Virus record (IMG/VR): IMGVR_UViG_3300045988_151390
Coordinates: 1-5,694 of that record
DNA: 5,694 nucleotides
Reading direction: 5' to 3' (one strand)
Source: a virus
Shown: positions 198 through 5,694 of the stretch, in pieces
Layout: every line of letters starts with the position of its first letter
How positions within the stretch are numbered: the first letter of the stretch is position 1
The notes under the pieces: generated by a model
What the model saw: only the letters and a program-made list of their open reading frames with translations
Database searches by the model: none
What the model was told of the DNA's origin: nothing
Position numbers and translations under genes: made by a program

Positions 198-250
198 CTT
201 TTTTTTACTTTCCTCTTGACAGCTCCTTCATATTGTGGTAACATTTAGCC
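190..250 (+). promoter_or_regulatory. Sigma70-like promoter for rep. It has upstream T-tracts (T7-ACT-T8-ACT, UP-element-like), -35 TTGACA (216-221), a 17-nt spacer ending in TGG (an extended -10 TGn), and -10 TAACAT (239-244)
   Basis: Consensus -35 with an exact 17-bp spacer. The -10 matches at 4 of 6 positions and carries an extended -10 TG. It sits about 35 nt upstream of the rep RBS. Confidence 0.5.
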
Positions 251-276: not shown

Positions 277-1413
277 ATGAAAACGGTTGTTAAACTTGAT
301 TATGCCACGTTTGCTTTTGAGCAAGGTTCGATTTCTATTTCTATAATCGAAGATGCGCTTGCTCAGTGCGATTTACATTTTTCGCAGACTTCCAACGCAA
401 GTGAGAATTCCCCATACAATTCGCCTGCGGGTCTTTTCTTTAAGCCGAATAACGGCGCGAAACAGTCTCCGCACTCTTTGCAAGTGTCCGGTCATGGTTG
501 TGAGCTTTTCCGTCCCACATTGCCGCGGCTCGCGTCACTGATGCAGGATGGTCATGAATTCGGTCACTTTTCCCGTCTTGACTTTTGCTTTGATGTTGTT
601 ATGACAAAGCAACGGTGGCGCGAGTTCTATCTGGGTGTTATTTCTGCTTCTGTTGATGAAATGAATTACCCTGAAAAAGCCCGTAAGGTTCGCAAGGTCA
701 TGTATCAGGGCTATGGCGATTCTACTACCGTCTATATCGGTCGTAGAACGTCTTCCGCGGTCTTCTGCCGCATCTATAATAAATCCCTTCAAGACCCCGA
801 AAAAAAGCTTTGTGTGGCTTCTGGTGAGTTTCTGGACTGCCCTGATGATTCCTATATCATTCGTTATGAGATGGAATTGAAATTTACTTCTCGTGTTCGT
901 TCTGGTTCTCGTTCCGTTTATGACCCGTCTCCGCTTTTCTGGTTTTACTATGAAGACCCTGAGAAGCTTTTCGCCTATCTTCGTAAAGTTTGGAATCGTT
1001 ACGGAAATGATACTCTTCTTCCCGATGGCTGGGACGATATGCAGTTCGTGACCGATATTGTAGCCCGTGGCATTCATTACACTGATGACTTTTGGCATCC
1101 CCTTAGCGATGACCTTGCTCAAAAGTTCTCCGTTTCTATCCATACCGAAGAACAAAAAATGTCTTACGTTGCTAACGTCTTCGGTCATAGGATTATTGAT
1201 ATTCTTCTTTATCGTCCTGAGTTGCTTTTCCTCGCTTGTTGTAAGTGGGAGCAGTATTATAATGAGCGTCTTTCGTTCTCCCCTCTGGAGCTTACACAGG
1301 AACTTGCGCAGTTCTCGGAATCCTCCCGCATTGCCGTTGAGGAATTTGAAGAACTTGCTGATGACCCATCTCCCTTTAGTGAAGTCGGGTTTGATGATAT
1401 ATCTTTATTCTGA
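277..1413 (+). CDS. Rolling-circle replication initiation protein of filamentous phage (gII / RstA analogue, Rep_trans-like)
   Basis: Longest ORF in its region. The ORF track begins at GTG 235, but ATG 277 (MKTVVKLDY...) is preceded by AAAGGTGG (260-267) at a 9-nt spacing. Motifs: N-terminal VKLDYATFAFE, HEFGHFSRLDFCFDV, VYIGRRTSSAVFCRIYNK and IRYEMELKF. From memory these resemble the conserved RxYNK/RxYDK and E-L-K motifs of the pT181 RepC / CTXphi RstA (Rep_trans) family. It is the first gene after the intergenic region and is followed by an SSB gene, as in inoviruses. Confidence 0.8.
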   Translation: MKTVVKLDYATFAFEQGSISISIIEDALAQCDLHFSQTSNASENSPYNSPAGLFFKPNNGAKQSPHSLQVSGHGCELFRPTLPRLASLMQDGHEFGHFSRLDFCFDVVMTKQRWREFYLGVISASVDEMNYPEKARKVRKVMYQGYGDSTTVYIGRRTSSAVFCRIYNKSLQDPEKKLCVASGEFLDCPDDSYIIRYEMELKFTSRVRSGSRSVYDPSPLFWFYYEDPEKLFAYLRKVWNRYGNDTLLPDGWDDMQFVTDIVARGIHYTDDFWHPLSDDLAQKFSVSIHTEEQKMSYVANVFGHRIIDILLYRPELLFLACCKWEQYYNERLSFSPLELTQELAQFSESSRIAVEEFEELADDPSPFSEVGFDDISLF

Positions 1414-1431: not shown

Positions 1432-1674
1432 ATGAAAGTTACTGTAGTTGGTAAGTCCCGCCGCGCTGGTACATCTAAGCAGGGCAAAAACTATGATTTT
1501 ACTACTCTTATGGCCGAATATTCGATGCTTGCAAACGCTGACAATGATGGCGTACAGGTTGATAGAATCAATGTTGACGCTCTCATGATGCCGTATGCGC
1601 TCATTGTCGTTGGCGCTATGTATGACCTTGACTTTGACCGCAACGGATATCTCCTTGGAATTGAGGAAGTCTAA
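1432..1674 (+). CDS. ssDNA-binding protein, gene V-like (80 aa)
   Basis: SD GAAAGGATGG lies 7 nt upstream of ATG 1432, which comes 18 nt after the rep stop. Size and position match gV. The segment KSRRAGTSKQGKNYDF resembles the DNA-binding wing of M13 gVp (TTRSGVSRQGKPYSL, recalled from memory). Confidence 0.8.
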   Translation: MKVTVVGKSRRAGTSKQGKNYDFTTLMAEYSMLANADNDGVQVDRINVDALMMPYALIVVGAMYDLDFDRNGYLLGIEEV

Positions 1675-1710: not shown

Positions 1711-1730
1711 GAGAGCTGTTCGCAGCTCTC
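1711..1730 (+). other. Perfect 8-bp hairpin gagagctg-ttcg-cagctctc with a UUCG tetraloop, 4 nt upstream of the tRNA 5' end
   Basis: Exact inverted repeat with no downstream U-tract, so it is not a classical terminator. It may be an RNA processing or stability element, or a DNA hairpin on the ssDNA form. Confidence 0.6.
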
Positions 1731-1734
1731 ACAT

Positions 1735-1808
1735 GGCGGGGTGGTGCAATGGTAGCACGTCACGCTCTGAACGTGAAACTGCTGGTTCGAATCCAGACCC
1801 CGCAACCA
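1735..1808 (+). tRNA. tRNA-Gln(CUG)-like gene with encoded CCA
   Basis: Hand-folded cloverleaf. Acceptor is 1735-1741 / 1798-1804 (6 of 7 pairs, G1·A72 mismatch). U8 is at 1742. D-stem is gtgc / gcac (1744-1747 / 1755-1758) with D-loop aatggta (A14, G18, G19, A21 present). Anticodon stem is tcacg / cgtga, with loop ctCTGaa (U33, anticodon CUG, A37). Variable region is 4 nt. T-stem is gctgg / ccaga (4 of 5 pairs) with the canonical T-loop TTCGAAT (G53, T54, T55, C56, A58, C61). Discriminator is A1805 and CCA is 1806-1808. Confidence 0.7.
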
Positions 1809-1826
1809 AACGGATTTGACCTCCGT
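1808..1826 (+). other. Small hairpin aacgga-tttgacc-tccgtt directly after the tRNA CCA; a possible tRNA 3' processing or terminator-like element. Its loop contains a TTGACC -35-like hexamer, but no good -10 follows
   Basis: 6-bp inverted repeat seen directly; only a weak T-run follows. Confidence 0.3.
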
Positions 1827-1855: not shown

Positions 1856-3034
1856 GTGAATAAAAAGTGTCGATGCTTCTTTAAGCGCTTCGCCGCCCTT
1901 GTCGCGGCTCTCTTTATCTCTTTTTCTCTTCCTGTTTCGGCTCTGGCTGCTTCTGACCCGGTAGCTGATATGCCATCTTTGGATGATTTCTATAATCATC
2001 ATGGGTCTTGGTATGCTTGGCGTAGTTTTAAAATGTCAGGTATCCTTTATTATGAGTTGCTTTGCTCCCCTCTTTCTGTTTCTGGTAGTTCTTATTCGTT
2101 ACCTTATTCCGTTTCATATGCTACTAACGCATTTGATGTTTCTTATATTGCTACTGATTCTGGCTTAACATATGATTATGCTTGCGCTTTTCCTCTTCCT
2201 CTCCGTGGTGCTTCTGGTTATTGGTACGAACTACCTTCTTTCCCTATTGGTTTGAGCACAAATGCTGATACTTGTCTTGTTCGCGTTTTTTCTACTGTTG
2301 ACCAACCTTCTGGTACTTACGGCTTTTTAACTTCTTCTTTTAGTCGTTCTGACCGTCTTCTTTCTTTCGGCAATACTGTTGGTTCTTCTTCTGGTTCTTC
2401 TACTGATACTTTGGATTCGTTTATTTTTTCATCTCCCTTTTATTCCTATCCTTTTGCTATTCGTCAAACTACTTCTTCTTCCGCAAGTGGTTATGTTTTA
2501 CAGGGCGGTGATAAAGGCTTTTTTGTTCCTTTGTCTAACTATTCACGTGCCCGCTATATTGACCTTGGAAGCACCCGTTTTCTTCGTGGTACTAATTCTT
2601 TCGTTGCTTATCCGTCTGGATACACTATTCCTTCTTCTGATATTGGTTTTGTTTTTGTTCAACAACCTTCTTCTTCTCCTGTCTATTCTGCTTCTGCTTT
2701 TGATACGACCGGGTCTTTCGCTTTTTCTCTTCTTGTTCCTGCTTCTCGTCTACATGACGTTAAACTTGGCGATTGGATATCTGATTCCCCAGAGGATTTG
2801 CAAGATGCGATAACTAATCAATTCGGCATTGATTCCGGTACTCTTAAAGATTCTCAAGATAAATTTAATTCTTGGAATTCTTCTTCTTCCGTTGATTCTG
2901 ATGTTGCTTCTGGTGCTTCTGGTCTTCTTGGCGGGCTTTTTCAGAACTTAGGTACATTCTTCTTTTCTGTTTCTCTCCTTTGCTTTGGCGCTGTTATTCT
3001 TCGAATGCTCATTAGAAAGGCGGTTGACGGATGA
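1856..3034 (+). CDS. Secreted Ser/Gly/Thr-rich minor coat / adsorption protein, pIII-like, with a C-terminal membrane anchor
   Basis: ORF 1838-3034. The likely start is GTG 1856, preceded by AAAGGTGGTGG (1841-1851); the alternative is GTG 1838. A predicted signal peptide MNKKCRCFFKRFAALVAALFISFSLPVSALA / ASDP has an AxA cleavage site. Long Ser-rich low-complexity linkers are present. The C-terminus LLGGLFQNLGTFFFSVSLLCFGAVILRMLIRKAVDG is a TM helix plus a basic tail, the same architecture as Ff pIII. It is the largest structural ORF. Confidence 0.7.
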   Translation: MNKKCRCFFKRFAALVAALFISFSLPVSALAASDPVADMPSLDDFYNHHGSWYAWRSFKMSGILYYELLCSPLSVSGSSYSLPYSVSYATNAFDVSYIATDSGLTYDYACAFPLPLRGASGYWYELPSFPIGLSTNADTCLVRVFSTVDQPSGTYGFLTSSFSRSDRLLSFGNTVGSSSGSSTDTLDSFIFSSPFYSYPFAIRQTTSSSASGYVLQGGDKGFFVPLSNYSRARYIDLGSTRFLRGTNSFVAYPSGYTIPSSDIGFVFVQQPSSSPVYSASAFDTTGSFAFSLLVPASRLHDVKLGDWISDSPEDLQDAITNQFGIDSGTLKDSQDKFNSWNSSSSVDSDVASGASGLLGGLFQNLGTFFFSVSLLCFGAVILRMLIRKAVDG

Positions 3035-4047: not shown

Positions 4048-4146
4048 CAGGTTCCAAAATATTTTTTGAAAGGATGATGCTTTCAGACTCCTACCACTTC
4101 TATCATTGGTACGTTGCTTTCTCAGGTCGGCGAATTTTTCACTCAG

Positions 4147-4275
4147 ATGATTACTTGGATGGGTCAGCTGATTGACTTTTATGAGCAGCAGCCGATTCTC
4201 CTTGTCTTCGTTATTCTGATGATTGCAAGCATCGTGCTCCGTCTTCTCCGCCGTTGGATTCCTGGCCGCTCCTAA
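4147..4275 (+). CDS. Small coat-like protein, 42 aa; major coat protein (pVIII-like) candidate
   Basis: The protein is MITWMGQLIDFYEQQPILLVFVILMIASIVLRLLRRWIPGRS: an acidic N-terminus, a single TM helix and an Arg-rich C-terminus (DNA-contact-like), the classic pVIII layout. A strong intrinsic terminator follows immediately, as after gVIII in Ff phages. No clear SD is present. The reading frame is open from 4078, so the true start could be the upstream TTG at 4114. The region overlaps the doubtful TTG-start ORF 3957-4175. Confidence 0.45.
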   Translation: MITWMGQLIDFYEQQPILLVFVILMIASIVLRLLRRWIPGRS

Positions 4276-4281
4276 AAGTGA

Positions 4282-4330
4282 GAGAAAACGCCGCCGACCA
4301 TTTTAATGGTCGGCGACGTTTTCTCGTTTT
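4282..4330 (+). terminator. Long intrinsic terminator: 20-bp stem (one C·A mismatch, loop ttta) whose GC-rich upper stem is followed by UUUUCUCGUUUU; it abuts the ATPase start codon
   Basis: Each pair of 4282-4301 versus 4306-4325 was checked by hand. The T-rich tract 4319-4330 follows the stem. The hairpin is symmetric enough to work on either strand. Confidence 0.65.
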
Positions 4331-4972
4331 ATGAAAGGATTATATGCTATGCTTTATGGTATTCTCATCTTTTGTATTTGCTGGCTTTTTGTATATATCG
4401 ATAATTATTGCAAAAACTCCTACAAATTGGAAGCTGTTGTTGGTTCAAAAGGTTCTGGCAAGTCTCTGTATATGTCTCGTGTTGCTGATAAGTGGCTTCG
4501 TTCTAATAAGGGGCTTATCTATTCTAATATGGGTATTGGTTATGAGTTAGATCCGGAATACTGGAAACAGACTTTTCTCCCTGATTCCCTTATTCTTATC
4601 GATGAAATTGGTGTTTTGCACTCTAACCGTGACTTTAAGACTATGCCCCGCGAAGCTGTCGAGTTTTTCAAGATGCAACGCAAGTATCATTTGACAATTA
4701 TTGTATCGTCTCAGACTATGGACTTTGACAAAAAGATTCGTGACCTCTGCGACCGCATTTATCTTTGCAACCGTATCGGCTGGTTTTGCCGTCTCACTCC
4801 CTATCGCTCTTGCATCGCTATGGAACATCGCCCCGAGGGAGGGCAAGAACTTGTCAATACGGTGCGCAAGGCGGGACGGGCAAGATGGTATACTATCCCT
4901 AAGTCTGTGAAGCAGGTGAGCGCCTTAGAATACGATACGGAGCAGGTTATTAGCAAGACCTCCTCTAAATAA
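4331..4972 (+). CDS. Zot / pI-like phage assembly ATPase (P-loop NTPase), short form of 213 aa with an N-terminal TM helix
   Basis: Walker A is VVGSKGSGKS, and Walker B is the hhhhDE-type motif LILIDEIG. Both are typical of the Zot N-terminal domain of inovirus pI. An N-terminal hydrophobic segment (LYGILIFCICWLFVYI) precedes the P-loop. The alternative start ATG 4349 has SD AAAGGA (4334-4339) at a 9-nt spacing. Confidence 0.85.
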   Translation: MKGLYAMLYGILIFCICWLFVYIDNYCKNSYKLEAVVGSKGSGKSLYMSRVADKWLRSNKGLIYSNMGIGYELDPEYWKQTFLPDSLILIDEIGVLHSNRDFKTMPREAVEFFKMQRKYHLTIIVSSQTMDFDKKIRDLCDRIYLCNRIGWFCRLTPYRSCIAMEHRPEGGQELVNTVRKAGRARWYTIPKSVKQVSALEYDTEQVISKTSSK

Positions 4973-5022: not shown

Positions 5023-5241
5023 TTAGCTATTTTTAAAGTAATGGTAAAGAAACTCTTCGTTATCTTTTAGAAGTCGTGCTTGGATTCTGAATCGGTGCAT
5101 ACTGCTTAGTTTCTTATCGTTAATCCATTTTTGTGCTGCGATTCTTAGAGCTTCTTTTTTGTTTTTTGCTTCGATATGGATAATCCATTCTTTATCTTCC
5201 CTTTTCTCCGTGCAAAATCTAATCTCATAATACTTATTCAT
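5023..5241 (-). CDS. Hypothetical basic 72-aa protein, second gene of the AT-rich minus-strand cassette
   Basis: Minus-strand ORF with SD AAAGGAGAA 9 nt upstream of the ATG, 17 nt downstream of the gene-1 stop. The protein is MNKYYEIRFCTEKREDKEWIIHIEAKNKKEALRIAAQKWINDKKLSSMHRFRIQARLLKDNEEFLYHYFKNS, net charge about +6. It has a faint resemblance to small HicB/UPF0150-like alpha/beta proteins, recalled from memory and not reliable. The K/E/N/I-rich composition differs from the phage core. Confidence 0.65.
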   Translation of the reverse strand: MNKYYEIRFCTEKREDKEWIIHIEAKNKKEALRIAAQKWINDKKLSSMHRFRIQARLLKDNEEFLYHYFKNS

Positions 5242-5258
5242 TTTTTTTTGTTCTCCTT

Positions 5259-5495
5259 TTAAAATCTTGTGAATGTTTTTCCGTCTTTTGTCTGTGCGAT
5301 TATCTCCCAGAAAATTTCATCGAGGTATTTTGTTGTATCCACGTAGTTGATGTCAATTCGCTTGATTATGAAGAAGTCGTAGAATTCTTCATTTTCATTG
5401 ACTGCGGTATATTTGAATGCTCTGTATTGATAGCTTTTCGTGTAGACAATTCTTTCTGTAAAGACCTTTTCAAGGAATTCTTTTTTTACTTTCAT
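5259..5495 (-). CDS. Hypothetical 78-aa protein, first gene of the AT-rich minus-strand cassette
   Basis: Minus-strand ORF with SD AAGGAGAT 8 nt upstream of the ATG (revcomp of 5501-5510). It lies about 20 nt downstream of the predicted TSS of the TTGACA/TACAAT promoter. The protein is MKVKKEFLEKVFTERIVYTKSYQYRAFKYTAVNENEEFYDFFIIKRIDINYVDTTKYLDEIFWEIIAQTKDGKTFTRF. No family was recognised. Confidence 0.65.
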   Translation of the reverse strand: MKVKKEFLEKVFTERIVYTKSYQYRAFKYTAVNENEEFYDFFIIKRIDINYVDTTKYLDEIFWEIIAQTKDGKTFTRF

Positions 5496-5524
5496 GCGCT
5501 TATCTCCTTTCCTTTTATGTCTTT

Positions 5525-5553
5525 ATTGTAGCATAGAAATTTCTATTTGTCAA
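5525..5553 (-). promoter_or_regulatory. Near-consensus sigma70 promoter on the minus strand driving the 78-aa/72-aa operon: -35 TTGACA (revcomp of 5548-5553), exact 17-nt spacer, -10 TACAAT (revcomp of 5525-5530)
   Basis: The reverse complement of 5521-5560 reads TTGACAaatagaaatttctatgcTACAATaaag. The predicted TSS is near 5518, giving a 5'UTR of about 23 nt that contains the AAGGAGAT SD. Confidence 0.6.
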
Positions 5554-5568
5554 TAGGAATTTCTATTG
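5533..5568. promoter_or_regulatory. Two tandem palindromic operator-like sites, 20 bp apart centre to centre. Site 1 ATAGAAATTTCTAT (5533-5546) is a perfect 14-bp palindrome inside the promoter spacer. Site 2 cAATAGGAATTTCTATTg (5551-5568) is an 18-bp palindrome with one mismatched pair, overlapping the -35
   Basis: Both palindromes were checked base by base. They share the half-site ATAG(A/G)AA / TTTCTAT. Their position over the -35 and spacer is typical of an autoregulating repressor operator. Confidence 0.55.
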
Positions 5569-5575
5569 CTCCATC

Positions 5576-5694
5576 ATTTTTTTTTTTTTTTTTCTTTTTT
5601 GCCGGCAGGCGCCACGTTTAGTCACGCGATAGCGTCTCCACCGCGTCCCCCGTCCCCGCAAGGGCAAAGCCCTTGCCCTTTCTAAACAGGCTGG
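5576..5694. repeat. Terminal redundancy copy 2, identical to 1-119 (circular wrap-around)
   Basis: Exact match to the first 119 nt of the window. Confidence 0.9.

Follow-up and report, generated by a model that had tools for sequence, protein, structure and literature searches.

A tRNA-Gln-like gene of filamentous phages as a probable dedicated initiator tRNA for a coat gene with a proposed non-AUG start

The window, which is the whole 5,694-nt stretch of DNA analysed here, represents a circular genome of 5575 nt with positions 1-119 repeated exactly at 5576-5694 (119-nt terminal repeat). It has the hallmarks of an inovirus (Tubulavirales), being small and circular and coding for a Rep of the rolling-circle type, a protein that binds ssDNA, a Zot/pI ATPase, and coat proteins that are small and hydrophobic. 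Other small membrane proteins are encoded as well, and a 43-aa and a 55-aa gene are among the window genes. Rep scores 29.5 bits against Rep_trans (gathering score 29.6) and Zot scores 24.9 bits (gathering score 20.3), while the PHROG matches fall into the replication initiation, RstB-like, and Zot-like families. Family searches of the window proteins found no integrase. The window shares approximately 80% DNA identity with GenBank ‘Inovirus sp.’ MT135292 and others. A promoter scan of the + strand gave nothing scoring above the promoter upstream of Rep between that promoter and the tRNA gene, and found no promoter adjoining the tRNA gene. A genetic code with TGA as sense (code 4 or 25) was ruled out by the TGA TGA end of Rep and by other genes ending in TGA. 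The features of the genome are collected in Table 1.

Table 1. Features of the window that bear on the tRNA gene and the coat gene
Feature	Position	Strand	Basis or remark
Sigma-70-type promoter, TTGACA-17-TAACAT with TG	216..244	+	Promoter scan; upstream of Rep
Rep (Rep_trans)	277-1413		Ends in TGA TGA
gV/RstB-like protein, 80 aa	1432-1674
Hairpin GAGAGCTG-TTCG-CAGCTCTC	1711..1730	+	Fold; ends 4 nt before tRNA position 1
tRNA-Gln(CUG), proposed dedicated initiator tRNA	1735..1808	+	ARAGORN, Rfam, covariation, comparison with cellular tRNA-Gln
Hairpin ACGGA-TTTGACC-TCCGT	1810..1826	+	Fold; directly 3' of CCA end
pIII-like protein with signal peptide	1856-3034
Shine-Dalgarno GAAAGGATG of coat gene	4068..4076	+	Consensus; conserved in 32/32 relatives
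In-frame TGA closing the coat frame	4075..4077	+	Two codons upstream of CAG
CAG, proposed coat start codon, cognate to tRNA anticodon	4084..4086	+	Invariant in 32/32
Gene for the putative major coat protein (63 codons, then TAA)	4084..4275	+	Reading frame, conservation, layout
Strong terminator-like hairpin, 20 pairs	4282..4325	both	Directly after coat gene
Zot/pI	4349-4972

The tRNA gene lies on the coding strand between the gV-like and pIII-like genes, in agreement with a preliminary description of this DNA, which had rightly remarked that a tRNA is unusual for an inovirus of 5.6 kb. The only gene called by ARAGORN in the window is a tRNA-Gln(ctg) on the + strand, at 1735-1808. The gene matches the Rfam family RF00005 over model positions 1-71 with 53.4 bits (gathering score 29, E 1e-9), it has the tertiary nucleotides, and its cloverleaf is the minimum-free-energy fold (-28 kcal/mol). 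The anticodon CTG is found at 1767-1769, the CCA end is encoded, and position 73 is an A. The tRNA gene occupies this genomic place in 29 relatives from the window clade, as it does in all 18 of the tRNA-bearing gut inoviruses that are more distant. Among 26 distinct clade sequences, 91.8% of the stem-pair cells in the alignment are paired, both sides have changed in 13 of 21 pairs, and compensatory changes occur in all four stems. None of 500 shuffles matched the observed pairing values, and slid registers were only 34-53% paired. Because of the compensatory changes in 13 of the 21 stem pairs, and because the tertiary invariants and the CCA end are all kept across the relatives, the comparison indicates that selection acts on the gene as a tRNA. 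The earlier call of a full-length, structurally sound tRNA is borne out by ARAGORN, the Rfam score, and this covariation. The earlier description had also named G.A mismatches at 1:72 and 49:65, and these are exactly the non-standard pairs flagged by Rfam. It had treated the one at 1:72 as a blemish; instead, the 1:72 mismatch is the most conserved special feature of the gene, the pair being formed in none of the 26 distinct sequences.

Two hairpins enclose the tRNA gene. In relatives, the upstream hairpin either carries compensatory changes or is replaced by another hairpin in the same place, and it is probably the 3'-end structure of the Rep-gV mRNA after RNase P cleavage. The downstream hairpin has covarying versions in relatives, such as CTGTCG/CGACAG and TTGTTG/CAACAA. 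As conserved hairpins flank the tRNA and no promoter adjoins it, the tRNA is likely processed out of a polycistronic transcript.

The reading frame in front of the terminator-like hairpin encodes a protein with an acidic amphipathic N-terminal part, a transmembrane helix, and a basic C-terminus (RRWIPGRS). Judging from its size, its hydrophobic and basic layout, its position, and the terminator, we infer that it is the putative major coat protein. Four coat proteins searched against Pfam and PHROG had no significant match, and the protein has no PHROG family, unlike all other proteins of the window, which have full-length ones. The gene is missed or shortened by gene callers, with 11 small protein clusters vs more than 240 for Rep. 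It has no usable ATG, GTG, or TTG in the window. Its Shine-Dalgarno motif and 7-9-nt spacing are the same as those before the ATG or GTG of Rep, gV, the pIII-like, 43-aa, and 55-aa genes, and Zot; at a gap of 7 nt, as at the window's ATG/GTG genes, stands CAG. An in-frame stop is located one or two codons before CAG in 32 of 32 genomes (31 TGA, one TAA). In these genomes the next in-frame NTG varies in position, at codon 10-13 or only at codon 19-21, and lacks a Shine-Dalgarno; near the coat start site of L278, L284, L285, and L438 there is no NTG whatsoever. The codons directly after CAG evolve as coding sequence, because the indels right after it are of 3 nt and 6 nt, and because third positions in the 20 codons that follow vary in 15 of 18 columns vs 7 and 5 at the other two positions. 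The translation from CAG reads QTPTTSIIG... If CAG starts the coat gene, the predicted N-terminal peptide is (formyl- or pyroGlu-)QTPTTSIIGTLLSQVGEFFTQ..., the alternative from a downstream Met being M(ITWMGQL...). A canonical codon does lie in frame near or inside the Shine-Dalgarno in a few relatives (ATG in L008 and the variant P0121, GTG in L005, L006, and L277), and the CAG-type start is therefore argued there from spacing. A +1 frameshift from the ATG-ATG overlapping the Shine-Dalgarno was ruled out, as these ATGs abut the Shine-Dalgarno and their frame is a non-conserved ORF of 19-33 aa.

The codon at the coat start site follows the anticodon of the phage's own tRNA, a link that the preliminary description missed. 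It is the cognate codon, in frame and at a spacing of 7-8 nt, in 68 of 68 genomes and contigs, which comprise the 32 window-clade genomes with invariant CAG and 36 further genomes and contigs. Six anticodons are represented: CTG pairs with CAG, TTG with CAA, CGT with ACG, AGT with ACT, TGT with ACA, and GGT with ACC or, by wobble, ACT. In 18 of 18 more distant genomes, which have five anticodons, the codon 7-8 nt past the coat Shine-Dalgarno exactly complements the anticodon. An out-of-sample test was a metagenome scan keyed only on the 5' half of the tRNA and blind to the coat gene. It yielded 18 contigs with both tRNA and coat gene; all 18 follow the rule, and they add a new class, GGT with ACC/ACT. 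Among the out-of-sample phages, AGT and TGT sisters have tRNAs with A34 or U34 and few further base differences, and their starts are ACT vs ACA, respectively. The pIII-like gene also starts with the cognate codon after a Shine-Dalgarno and runs straight into the signal peptide in L280, L281, L282, L279, L283, L292, and L276, and likewise in L430, L432, L433, L435, L438, L442, and L447. The controls, five tRNA-less relatives with six coat genes, all have a Shine-Dalgarno and ATG. Since switches are found within four separate Zot clades, the comparison suggests at least seven independent anticodon/start-codon switches. Judged by covariation only, the tRNA would qualify as an initiator by function, its anticodon matching in 68 of 68 cases the codon that the Shine-Dalgarno sets in the P site and that opens the ORF.

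These data are comparative genomics of uncultured phages, partly from GenBank ‘UNVERIFIED’ assemblies. A scan of IMG/VR with a Zot alignment gave only 4 loci, GenBank tblastn being much richer. Two DNA-pattern scans of IMG/VR (T arm with ‘GCAACCA’ end; D arm with T loop) were too general and brought no new inoviruses; their matches were genes for initiator tRNA-Met and tRNA-Gln(UUG) in the tRNA arrays of large tailed phages. Scanning for any codon 5-10 nt after a Shine-Dalgarno match of at least 6 nt gave 345 ‘other’ codons, a set too noisy to be of use, in which most entries were adjacent to true starts or were internal motifs resembling a Shine-Dalgarno.

The phage tRNA shares its D arm (UGGUGYARNGGUMRCAY), acceptor pairs 2-7, type of T arm, and length with cellular Clostridia/Bacillota-type tRNA-Gln(CUG/UUG), it has an NUG anticodon in the window, and a pattern of its 5' half retrieves cellular tRNA-Gln(CUG/UUG). 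By this sequence likeness, a tRNA-Gln of that type is the likely evolutionary source. The sister-phage tRNAs keep the tRNA-Gln body, but their anticodons (CGU, AGU, UGU, GGU) are no longer those of Gln. Positions 1:72 and 73 are the ones that set initiators apart from elongators. Cellular tRNA-Gln has 1:72 paired (U-A or A-U), G73, and mostly G37, with about 100 of 120 genomic matches reading UGCGGGN...NCCCGCA-G-CCA, whereas the phage gene has G.A or C.A, A73, and A37. In 15 of 19 phage lineages 1:72 is G.A or C.A; the other 4 have U-A, none has G-C or C-G, and A72 is invariant. The window has G1.A72 with A73, i.e. the mismatch of an initiator and not the U1-A72 (or A1-U72) and G73 of an elongator tRNA-Gln. 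All Gln-type phage tRNAs have A at position 73, and the discriminator covaries with the anticodon class. In E. coli, a mismatch at 1:72 is an EF-Tu anti-determinant and a formylation determinant. An engineered Cys initiator works only with a mismatch or weak pair at 1:72 (PMC11822699). The absence of U1-A72 may also block amidation if the host uses GatCAB.

Bacterial initiator tRNA-fMet has further features in common with the phage tRNA, which apart from the unpaired 1:72 with A72 and the A73 of the Gln-type versions has G2:C71, C3:G70, G4:C69, C32, A37, and A38, and which would likewise read a P-site codon placed by the Shine-Dalgarno. The acceptor stem of the E. coli initiator is CGCGGGG/CCCCGCA-A-CCA, and that of the phage tRNA, GGCGGGG/CCCCGCA-A-CCA, differs from it only at position 1. 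The pairs G2:C71, C3:G70, and G4:C69 and A73 are invariant in the clade. As the three pairs are also present in cellular tRNA-Gln, only A73 (vs G73) discriminates within the acceptor set, and the pairs are therefore not independent evidence of initiator design. Unlike tRNA-fMet, the phage tRNA has the anticodon CUG (UUG, CGU, AGU, UGU, or GGU in relatives) instead of CAU, and U11:A24, the elongator type, instead of A11:U24 in all aligned sequences. It also lacks the three consecutive G:C pairs 29-31:39-41, with A29-U41, C30-G40, and G31-C39 in the window; all three are found only in L282, and G30:C40 in roughly 60% of lineages. An E. coli initiator without the three G:C pairs is formylated but non-functional in the wild-type background, and G30-C40 is essential (PMC6393288, PMC5389676). 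The remaining differences from tRNA-fMet are the tRNA-Gln-like D arm and body, the amino acid, which is probably Gln or Thr instead of Met, and the encoding by a 5.6-kb phage in which the tRNA would serve one or two genes. The Thr-anticodon tRNAs often have U, C, or G in place of A37, unlike normal ANN-reading elongators.

We consider it likely, from these comparisons, that the phage encodes this tRNA as an initiator of its own, dedicated to this task. It would be transcribed within the Rep-gV-structural gene transcript, as no promoter adjoins it, and cut out by host RNase P and 3' trimming. The CUG anticodon and tRNA-Gln body suggest that it is probably aminoacylated with Gln in this phage. 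By E. coli rules, the unpaired 1:72, A72/A73, and G2:C71/C3:G70 would keep it off EF-Tu, and the same acceptor features would make it a substrate of the host formyltransferase and IF2. Sequence and covariation point to the CAG 7 nt past the coat Shine-Dalgarno as its partner in the P site. Synthesis of the coat protein would then require the phage tRNA, as would that of the pIII-like adsorption protein in sister lineages. The outcome would be a private start codon, probably with delay or dosage control of the virion proteins relative to Rep and gV, and relatives would have retuned anticodon and start codon in step (CAG, CAA, ACG, ACU, ACA, ACC). More generally, these phages likely have a natural orthogonal initiation system, in which each genome has one initiator tRNA derived from elongator tRNA-Gln and a cognate non-AUG start for the major coat gene and often the adsorption gene; the two would have switched together at least seven times, and the phages would be the first natural example of a start codon reassigned by a virus-encoded tRNA.

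The covariation of the anticodon with the codon beside the Shine-Dalgarno would likewise be predicted by regulatory pairing, in which the tRNA, charged or not, docks on the ribosome-binding region of the coat (and pIII-like) gene as on the specifier codon of a T-box leader, opening or blocking it, and host fMet-tRNA starts elsewhere; tRNAs without the three G:C pairs expected of initiators also speak for it. We regard such docking as quite unlikely. No alternative start is on offer, as the frame reaches only one or two codons beyond the site on its upstream side; the next NTG is variable, distant from the Shine-Dalgarno, and absent in some genomes; the four named above have none close by; and the matched codon is in frame at the exact P-site distance of 7-8 nt in 68 of 68. 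A T-box-like mechanism was rejected, as the 20-30 nt from the upstream stop to the Shine-Dalgarno are too small for Stem I and antiterminator and there is no alternative start.

The tRNA could also be an ordinary elongator supplementing CAG decoding, e.g. of a CAG-rich coat gene, which is the usual explanation for the tRNAs of tailed phages and one of three readings in the preliminary description. The tRNA-Gln-like body is compatible with this, CAG outnumbers CAA in the window (31 vs 21) though other two-fold families prefer A-ending codons, and the coat ORF has five internal CAG and no CAA. However, CAG/(CAG+CAA) is 0.56-0.69 in all anticodon classes, including phages with an ACN-reading tRNA, and the share of ACG is lowest (0.09) in genomes with an ACG-reading tRNA. 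From codon usage we rejected codon supplementation, the share of the cognate codon in ORFs being independent of the anticodon class. Neither the conserved 1:72 mismatch, a pair formed in cellular tRNA-Gln, nor the tracking of one start-site codon by the anticodon nor a coat gene without a start codon is explained by an elongator, and this role is very improbable.

Equally hard to credit is a mere punctuation element, i.e. a tRNA-shaped signal at which RNase P and 3' processing split the replication transcript from the structural one irrespective of the anticodon. The structure-conserved hairpins directly 5' and 3' could indeed protect new mRNA ends, and no promoter adjoins the tRNA, but punctuation needs no specific anticodon, conserved U33 and anticodon loop, encoded CCA, or class-covarying discriminator, and leaves the anticodon/start-codon covariation unexplained. 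Processing is probably an additional consequence and not the function. Last, it is extremely unlikely that the gene is an attP-like version of a host's tRNA-Gln gene for integration by a host or helper recombinase. Its body is homologous to Clostridia-type tRNA-Gln, and L396 and L276 lie inside a 107-kb Oscillospiraceae MAG contig and a 42-kb phage-like contig, respectively, but the tRNA is internal in both and not terminal, having the replication genes on one side and the pIII-like gene on the other, as in free genomes. The attP reading was rejected because of sequence divergence and contig sizes, all 120 Rep homologues of the window clade among the matches listed being on contigs of ~5 kb with no integrated copy found. 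The gene is full-length, diverged with compensatory changes, unlike cellular tRNA-Gln at 1:72 and 73, and switching in anticodon, in a window without integrase. Hence, the tRNA identity given in the preliminary description holds, while the best-supported function is not among the three that it proposed.

A dedicated phage initiator would resemble the orthogonal initiators engineered in the laboratory (amber i-tRNA(CUA), tRNA(AAC), Cys-tRNAj) in being a second initiator whose anticodon is changed and which starts chosen genes at the matching non-AUG codon after an ordinary Shine-Dalgarno; in those, 1:72 must be a mismatch or weak, and the amino acid follows the anticodon, e.g. Gln for CUA (PMC11822699; bioRxiv 10.1101/2021.05.25.445580; PMC6393288). 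The engineered tRNAs have a tRNA-fMet scaffold and keep the three G:C pairs, whereas the phage tRNA is natural, with an elongator tRNA-Gln scaffold and six anticodon/start-codon pairs. Phages with suppressor tRNAs and stop-codon recoding of late genes (Borges et al., bioRxiv 10.1101/2021.08.26.457843; PMC9523058; PMC10879173) are similar in that gut phages need their own tRNA to read structural or late genes, close relatives switch frequently, and gene callers fail. Suppressor tRNAs act on an internal stop in the A site in large tailed phages, unlike the start codon in the P site proposed here for 5-kb ssDNA filamentous phages. Another viral capsid gene beginning at a non-AUG codon by means of a virus-supplied tRNA-shaped RNA is that of dicistroviruses, whose intergenic IRES starts the capsid ORF at GCU or CAA without initiator tRNA. 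That IRES acts in cis in eukaryotes by mimicking tRNA/mRNA, with the first codon in the A site, while the phage agent would be a trans-acting real tRNA in bacteria.

If this reading is true, reassignment of a start codon by a virus-encoded tRNA would add a new type of deviation from the standard genetic code, and the bacterial ribosome could initiate with a tRNA without the three G:C pairs, raising the question of how initiation factors accept one lacking this signature. It would also explain why annotations and protein databases lack the most abundant virion gene of these phages, and gene callers could adopt the rule of reading the phage tRNA anticodon and seeking its codon behind a Shine-Dalgarno. 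A 5-kb phage might spend 74 nt on coat control for timing, dosage, a non-Met N-terminus, or a guard against expression or exploitation outside its own infection. For synthetic biology, the phages would offer natural, compact, and already diversified orthogonal pairs of initiator tRNA and start codon.

The phages probably form a widespread group of mammalian-gut filamentous phages with Clostridia as hosts. For the window clade there are hints at the host: Clostridiales CRISPR targets gut stand-alone-Zot inoviruses (PMC8530359), one relative is binned in a Roseburia MAG, and another is integrated in an Oscillospiraceae MAG contig.

The window holds a circular genome of 5575 nt, with positions 1-119 repeated identically at 5576-5694 as a 119-nt terminal direct repeat. 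The genome is about 80% identical to 'Inovirus sp.' entries in GenBank that come from pig faeces. All long ORFs except two are on the plus strand.

Features of the window
Feature	Position	Strand	Remark
Rep (Rep_trans)	277-1413	+	
gV/RstB-like protein	1432-1674	+	80 aa
Hairpin	1711-1730		structure-conserved
tRNA-Gln(ctg)	1735-1808	+	ARAGORN
Hairpin	1810-1826		structure-conserved
pIII-like protein	1856-3034	+	392 aa, GTG start, signal peptide
Small membrane proteins and a 203-aa protein		+	
Shine-Dalgarno of coat gene	4068-4076	+	GAAAGGATG
TGA closing the coat frame	4075-4077	+	in frame
CAG	4084-4086	+	proposed coat start
Coat ORF	4084-4275	+	63 codons
Terminator hairpin	4282-4325		strongest in genome, directly 3' of coat ORF
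Zot/pI ATPase	4349-4972	+	ATG start
Two ORFs, 72 and 78 aa	5023-5241, 5259-5495	-	no family match

ARAGORN calls a single tRNA gene in the window, and the Rfam tRNA model scores it at 53.4 bits, above the gathering score of 29. The Rfam alignment contains exactly two non-standard pairs, the G.A at 1:72 and the G.A at 49:65, and the single sequence folds into a cloverleaf. All features given for this tRNA in the preliminary description are present. A Rep-based scan of IMG/VR gathered 27 relatives with Rep identities of 82-96%; the tRNA is at the same site in 24, and the other three are fragments of 4.0-4.2 kb ending within or just past Rep. Seven pig inoviruses in GenBank carry it as well. Across 26 distinct tRNA sequences, 91.8% of cells are paired, both sides have changed at 13 of the 21 stem pairs, none of 500 shuffles matches any pairing measure, and slid registers reduce the pairing to 34-53%. 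These data demonstrate that the window tRNA is a real gene under selection. A72, A73, and CCA are invariant in the clade. Because 1:72 is unpaired in all 26 sequences (G.A in 24 and C.A in 2), this apparent blemish is a selected feature. In one relative, L020, the tRNA (1577-1650) has lost 1 nt of the D loop and its anticodon loop has 8 nt (ARAGORN anticodon 'actg'). Decay of the gene, faulty assembly, or quadruplet reading could account for this form, and the coat start of L020 is still CAG.

Every ATG- or GTG-started gene of the window has the Shine-Dalgarno (G)AAAGGNNN 7-9 nt before its start. A further copy of the motif is followed, after 7 nt, by a CAG in frame with a 63-codon ORF just upstream of Zot. 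The predicted product joins an acidic amphipathic segment to a transmembrane helix and a basic tail (RRWIPGRS), an arrangement typical of inovirus major coat proteins. TGA shuts this frame two codons ahead of the CAG. When the coat starts of 32 genomes are aligned, the CAG is without variation, and all 32 have a stop in frame one or two codons before it (29 with TGA CTT CAG). The first NTG in this frame varies, being a TTG at codon 10-13 in most genomes and absent until codon 19-21 in several. Indels past the CAG span 3 or 6 nt, and in the 20 codons past it, variable columns number 7, 5, and 15 by codon position, out of 18 each. This pattern of stops, indels, and codon positions places the beginning of translation at the CAG or its immediate neighbourhood, and demonstrates that the coat ORF has no canonical start codon. 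An ATG-ATG (4074-4079) abuts the coat Shine-Dalgarno out of frame; its ORF (4074-4175), encoding 33 aa in the window and 19 aa in relatives, lacks a conserved length and is unlikely to be expressed. Gene callers agree, by omission, with the missing canonical start. PHROGs has a full-length family for every other protein of the phage and none for the coat protein, and a collection of 5.8 billion proteins has more than 240 Rep clusters versus 11 small coat clusters, which are called from differing internal codons. In one variant, P0121 (69 aa, five contigs, 98% identity to the window coat protein), GGA replaces the TGA before CAG, so that an ATG within the Shine-Dalgarno region (ATG AAA GGA GGA TGC CTT CAG) is in frame and is used by gene callers; the same change strengthens the Shine-Dalgarno to AAAGGAGG, still 7 nt before CAG.

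Distant gut inoviruses were gathered by a Zot query in GenBank. Each tRNA-bearing genome among them has a single tRNA, always at this site in the genome, with differing anticodons, and in every one the coat codon 7-8 nt past the Shine-Dalgarno complements the anticodon exactly.

Anticodons and coat start codons of related inovirus genomes (L-numbers) and of contigs from the metagenome scan
Anticodon	Coat start	Genomes	Scan contigs
CTG	CAG	L005, L006, L280, L281, L287, L276	
TTG	CAA	L282; L360 (coat 68% identical to the window's)	
CGT	ACG	L277, L278, L279, L283, L396	
AGT	ACT	L008, L284, L292	12
TGT	ACA	L285, L286	4
GGT (not seen before)	ACC		2

No NTG lies between the upstream stop and the cognate codon in L278, L284, and L285. 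Genomes with two coat paralogs start one of them at the cognate codon and the other at an ATG behind a normal Shine-Dalgarno. The Zot group of at least 80% identity contains CGT, CTG, and AGT anticodons together, that of 57-60% CGT, CTG, and TTG, and that of 51-54% AGT, TGT, and CTG; the window clade and L360 add another anticodon difference at the Zot-group level. Since differing anticodons share Zot identity groups, at least seven co-switches are needed. The six coat genes of the tRNA-less relatives (L288, L290, L291, L295, and L296) all have a Shine-Dalgarno and ATG. An out-of-sample metagenome scan, defined only by the phage-type tRNA 5' half (G1 or C1) and an anticodon whose first base is not C, yielded 33 contigs, mostly from gut metagenomes. 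Both the tRNA and a coat homologue are on 18 of them, and codon and anticodon match in 18/18. Eight L008-like phages read 'TGA AAG GTG GTA TGC TCT ACT' without an in-frame ATG, and therefore remove the ambiguity of the L008 start. The TGT tRNAs have U34 in place of the A34 of their AGT sisters, plus a few other base differences. The ACC start is found in paralog 2 of L442, where the frame opens one codon upstream, while ACT would be read by G.U wobble in paralog 1 of L442 and L447. Taken together, the co-variation spans six anticodons.

The gene directly after the tRNA also begins with the cognate codon in several lineages: CAG in L280, L281, and L276; CAA in L282 and L426; ACG in L279 and L283; ACT in L292, L430, L432, L433, L435, L438, L442, and L447; and ACC in L434. 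It is pIII-like in most of them, with the right spacing, and runs directly into the signal peptide. The window pIII-like gene starts with GTG. In bajarodino viruses 58, 65, and 54 (L284 2953-3027, L285 2953-3027, and L286 3046-3126), the annotated pIII-like CDS spans the entire tRNA, starting at an ATG over tRNA positions 1-2 in the first two and 7 nt upstream of the tRNA in the third, and the tRNA would code for the signal peptide's charged N-terminal part. These three have no Shine-Dalgarno or start downstream of the tRNA, and may make dual use of the 74 nt or let tRNA excision compete with pIII translation.

Transcript processing at the tRNA, serving as punctuation, is likely to happen, as no promoter adjoins the tRNA and structure-conserved hairpins lie on both sides of it, but punctuation leaves the anticodon unexplained. 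A T-box-type regulatory contact between tRNA and mRNA would predict the anticodon/codon covariation; however, it would offer no start for the coat gene, and there is no leader through which it could act. The earlier proposal of a supplement for CAG decoding fails, because the share of the cognate codon within ORFs is independent of anticodon class. The proposed attP copy of a host tRNA fails as well: relatives of the window clade among the matches listed are contigs of about 5 kb, an integrase is absent, and the phage gene is divergent and full-length.

The tRNA 5' half was scanned against 185,579 species genomes. Its matches are mostly cellular tRNA-Gln(CUG/UUG) from Clostridia, other Bacillota, Patescibacteria, and Chloroflexota, of the form UGCGGGR...YCCCGCA-G-CCA, with U1-A72 (or A1-U72) paired, G73, and mostly G37. 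By sequence likeness, the phage tRNA appears to descend from such a tRNA-Gln, which would therefore also account for G2:C71, C3:G70, and G4:C69. It differs from the cellular form in the unpaired 1:72, A73, and A37. Of 19 lineages, 15 have G.A or C.A at 1:72 and four have U-A; none has a strong pair there. All nine NUG versions have A as discriminator base and all ten NGU versions have U or C, a split that suggests adaptation to another synthetase upon change of anticodon class. The NGU versions retain the tRNA-Gln body, and their position 37 is often U, C, or G. Formylation in E. coli depends mainly on an unpaired or weak 1:72, which is also the chief anti-determinant for EF-Tu. An engineered Cys initiator functioned only with a 1:72 mismatch or U1:A72/A1:U72 (PMC11822699). 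Different from canonical initiators, the phage tRNA lacks the three anticodon-stem G:C pairs, and its 11:24 pair is U:A; in wild-type E. coli, tRNAs without the three G:C pairs get formylated yet are rejected at initiation, and G30:C40 is essential in the initiator (PMC6393288, PMC5389676). From comparative evidence, we infer that the phage tRNA acts initiator-like, yet stands outside the tRNA-fMet family.

In such initiation, the tRNA would be co-transcribed and then excised, charged with Gln in the window and with Thr in the NGU classes, formylated, delivered by IF2 and kept off EF-Tu, and would pair with CAG in the P site. Speculatively, the phage could benefit from delayed or dosed virion-protein synthesis, from a leaderless coat protein whose N-terminus is not Met, or from a guard against expression outside its own infection. 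A full-text literature search turned up neither a naturally occurring initiator tRNA encoded by a phage nor non-AUG starts linked to a tRNA in inoviruses. The nearest systems are engineered orthogonal initiators (PMC11822699; bioRxiv 10.1101/2021.05.25.445580; PMC6393288) and phage suppressor tRNAs recoding late-gene stop codons (bioRxiv 10.1101/2021.08.26.457843).

Several related tRNAs and loci have features of their own. L008 (4587-4661) and about 15 metagenome contigs (L417, L420, L425, and others) have an extra U in the T-stem 3' strand; the stem is GCCGG/CCG-U-GC in the AGT and TGT tRNAs of this subgroup, and the U is no sequencing error, since it recurs across many independent assemblies. 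Bacterial/CPR genomes L313, L400, L415, L390, and L311 have an initiator-type tRNA(CAU) with C1.A72, A73, and the tRNA-Gln-like D arm of the phage tRNA (for example, CGCGGGGTGGTGCAATGGTAGCAT...CTCATAA...CCCCGCAAC), which is closer in likeness to the phage tRNA than E. coli tRNA-fMet is. The 1.4-kb contig Ga0123354_10322749 (L436) carries, at 817 of the locus's reverse-complement strand (match 548-606 in locus coordinates), a tRNA whose phage-type 5' half (C1) is joined to a TAC anticodon and whose CCA end is not encoded; it may be a seventh class with a GTA start, and is too short to reveal a coat gene. L276 (IMG/VR 3300045988_115507, 42 kb) holds a complete inovirus module at about 3200-7700, with a Rep_OBD Rep, tRNA-CTG, pIII-like protein, coat, and Zot, flanked by a large terminase, an HTH regulator, a DEAD/ResIII helicase, and a DUF927 primase-like protein. 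It is either an inovirus integrated in a tailed (pro)phage or a chimeric assembly. L396 (8001-16000 of the 107-kb contig CAKTPV010000006, an Oscillospiraceae MAG) is an integrated copy with tRNA-CGT and an ACG-started coat gene; it hints at an Oscillospiraceae host, and the prophage ends fall outside the 8-kb locus.

In the window, a T-rich run (A T18 C T5) stands at the start of the terminal repeat, and GC-rich hairpins come after it (about 30-120 and 163-189); this stretch is probably the replication origin or packaging region. The best promoter match (5553-5525, 11/12) drives both minus-strand ORFs and overlaps two copies of the ATAGRAATTTCTAT palindrome (5533-5547 and 5552-5566). With these ORFs and palindromes, region 5023-5572 looks like a divergent regulator/operator module.
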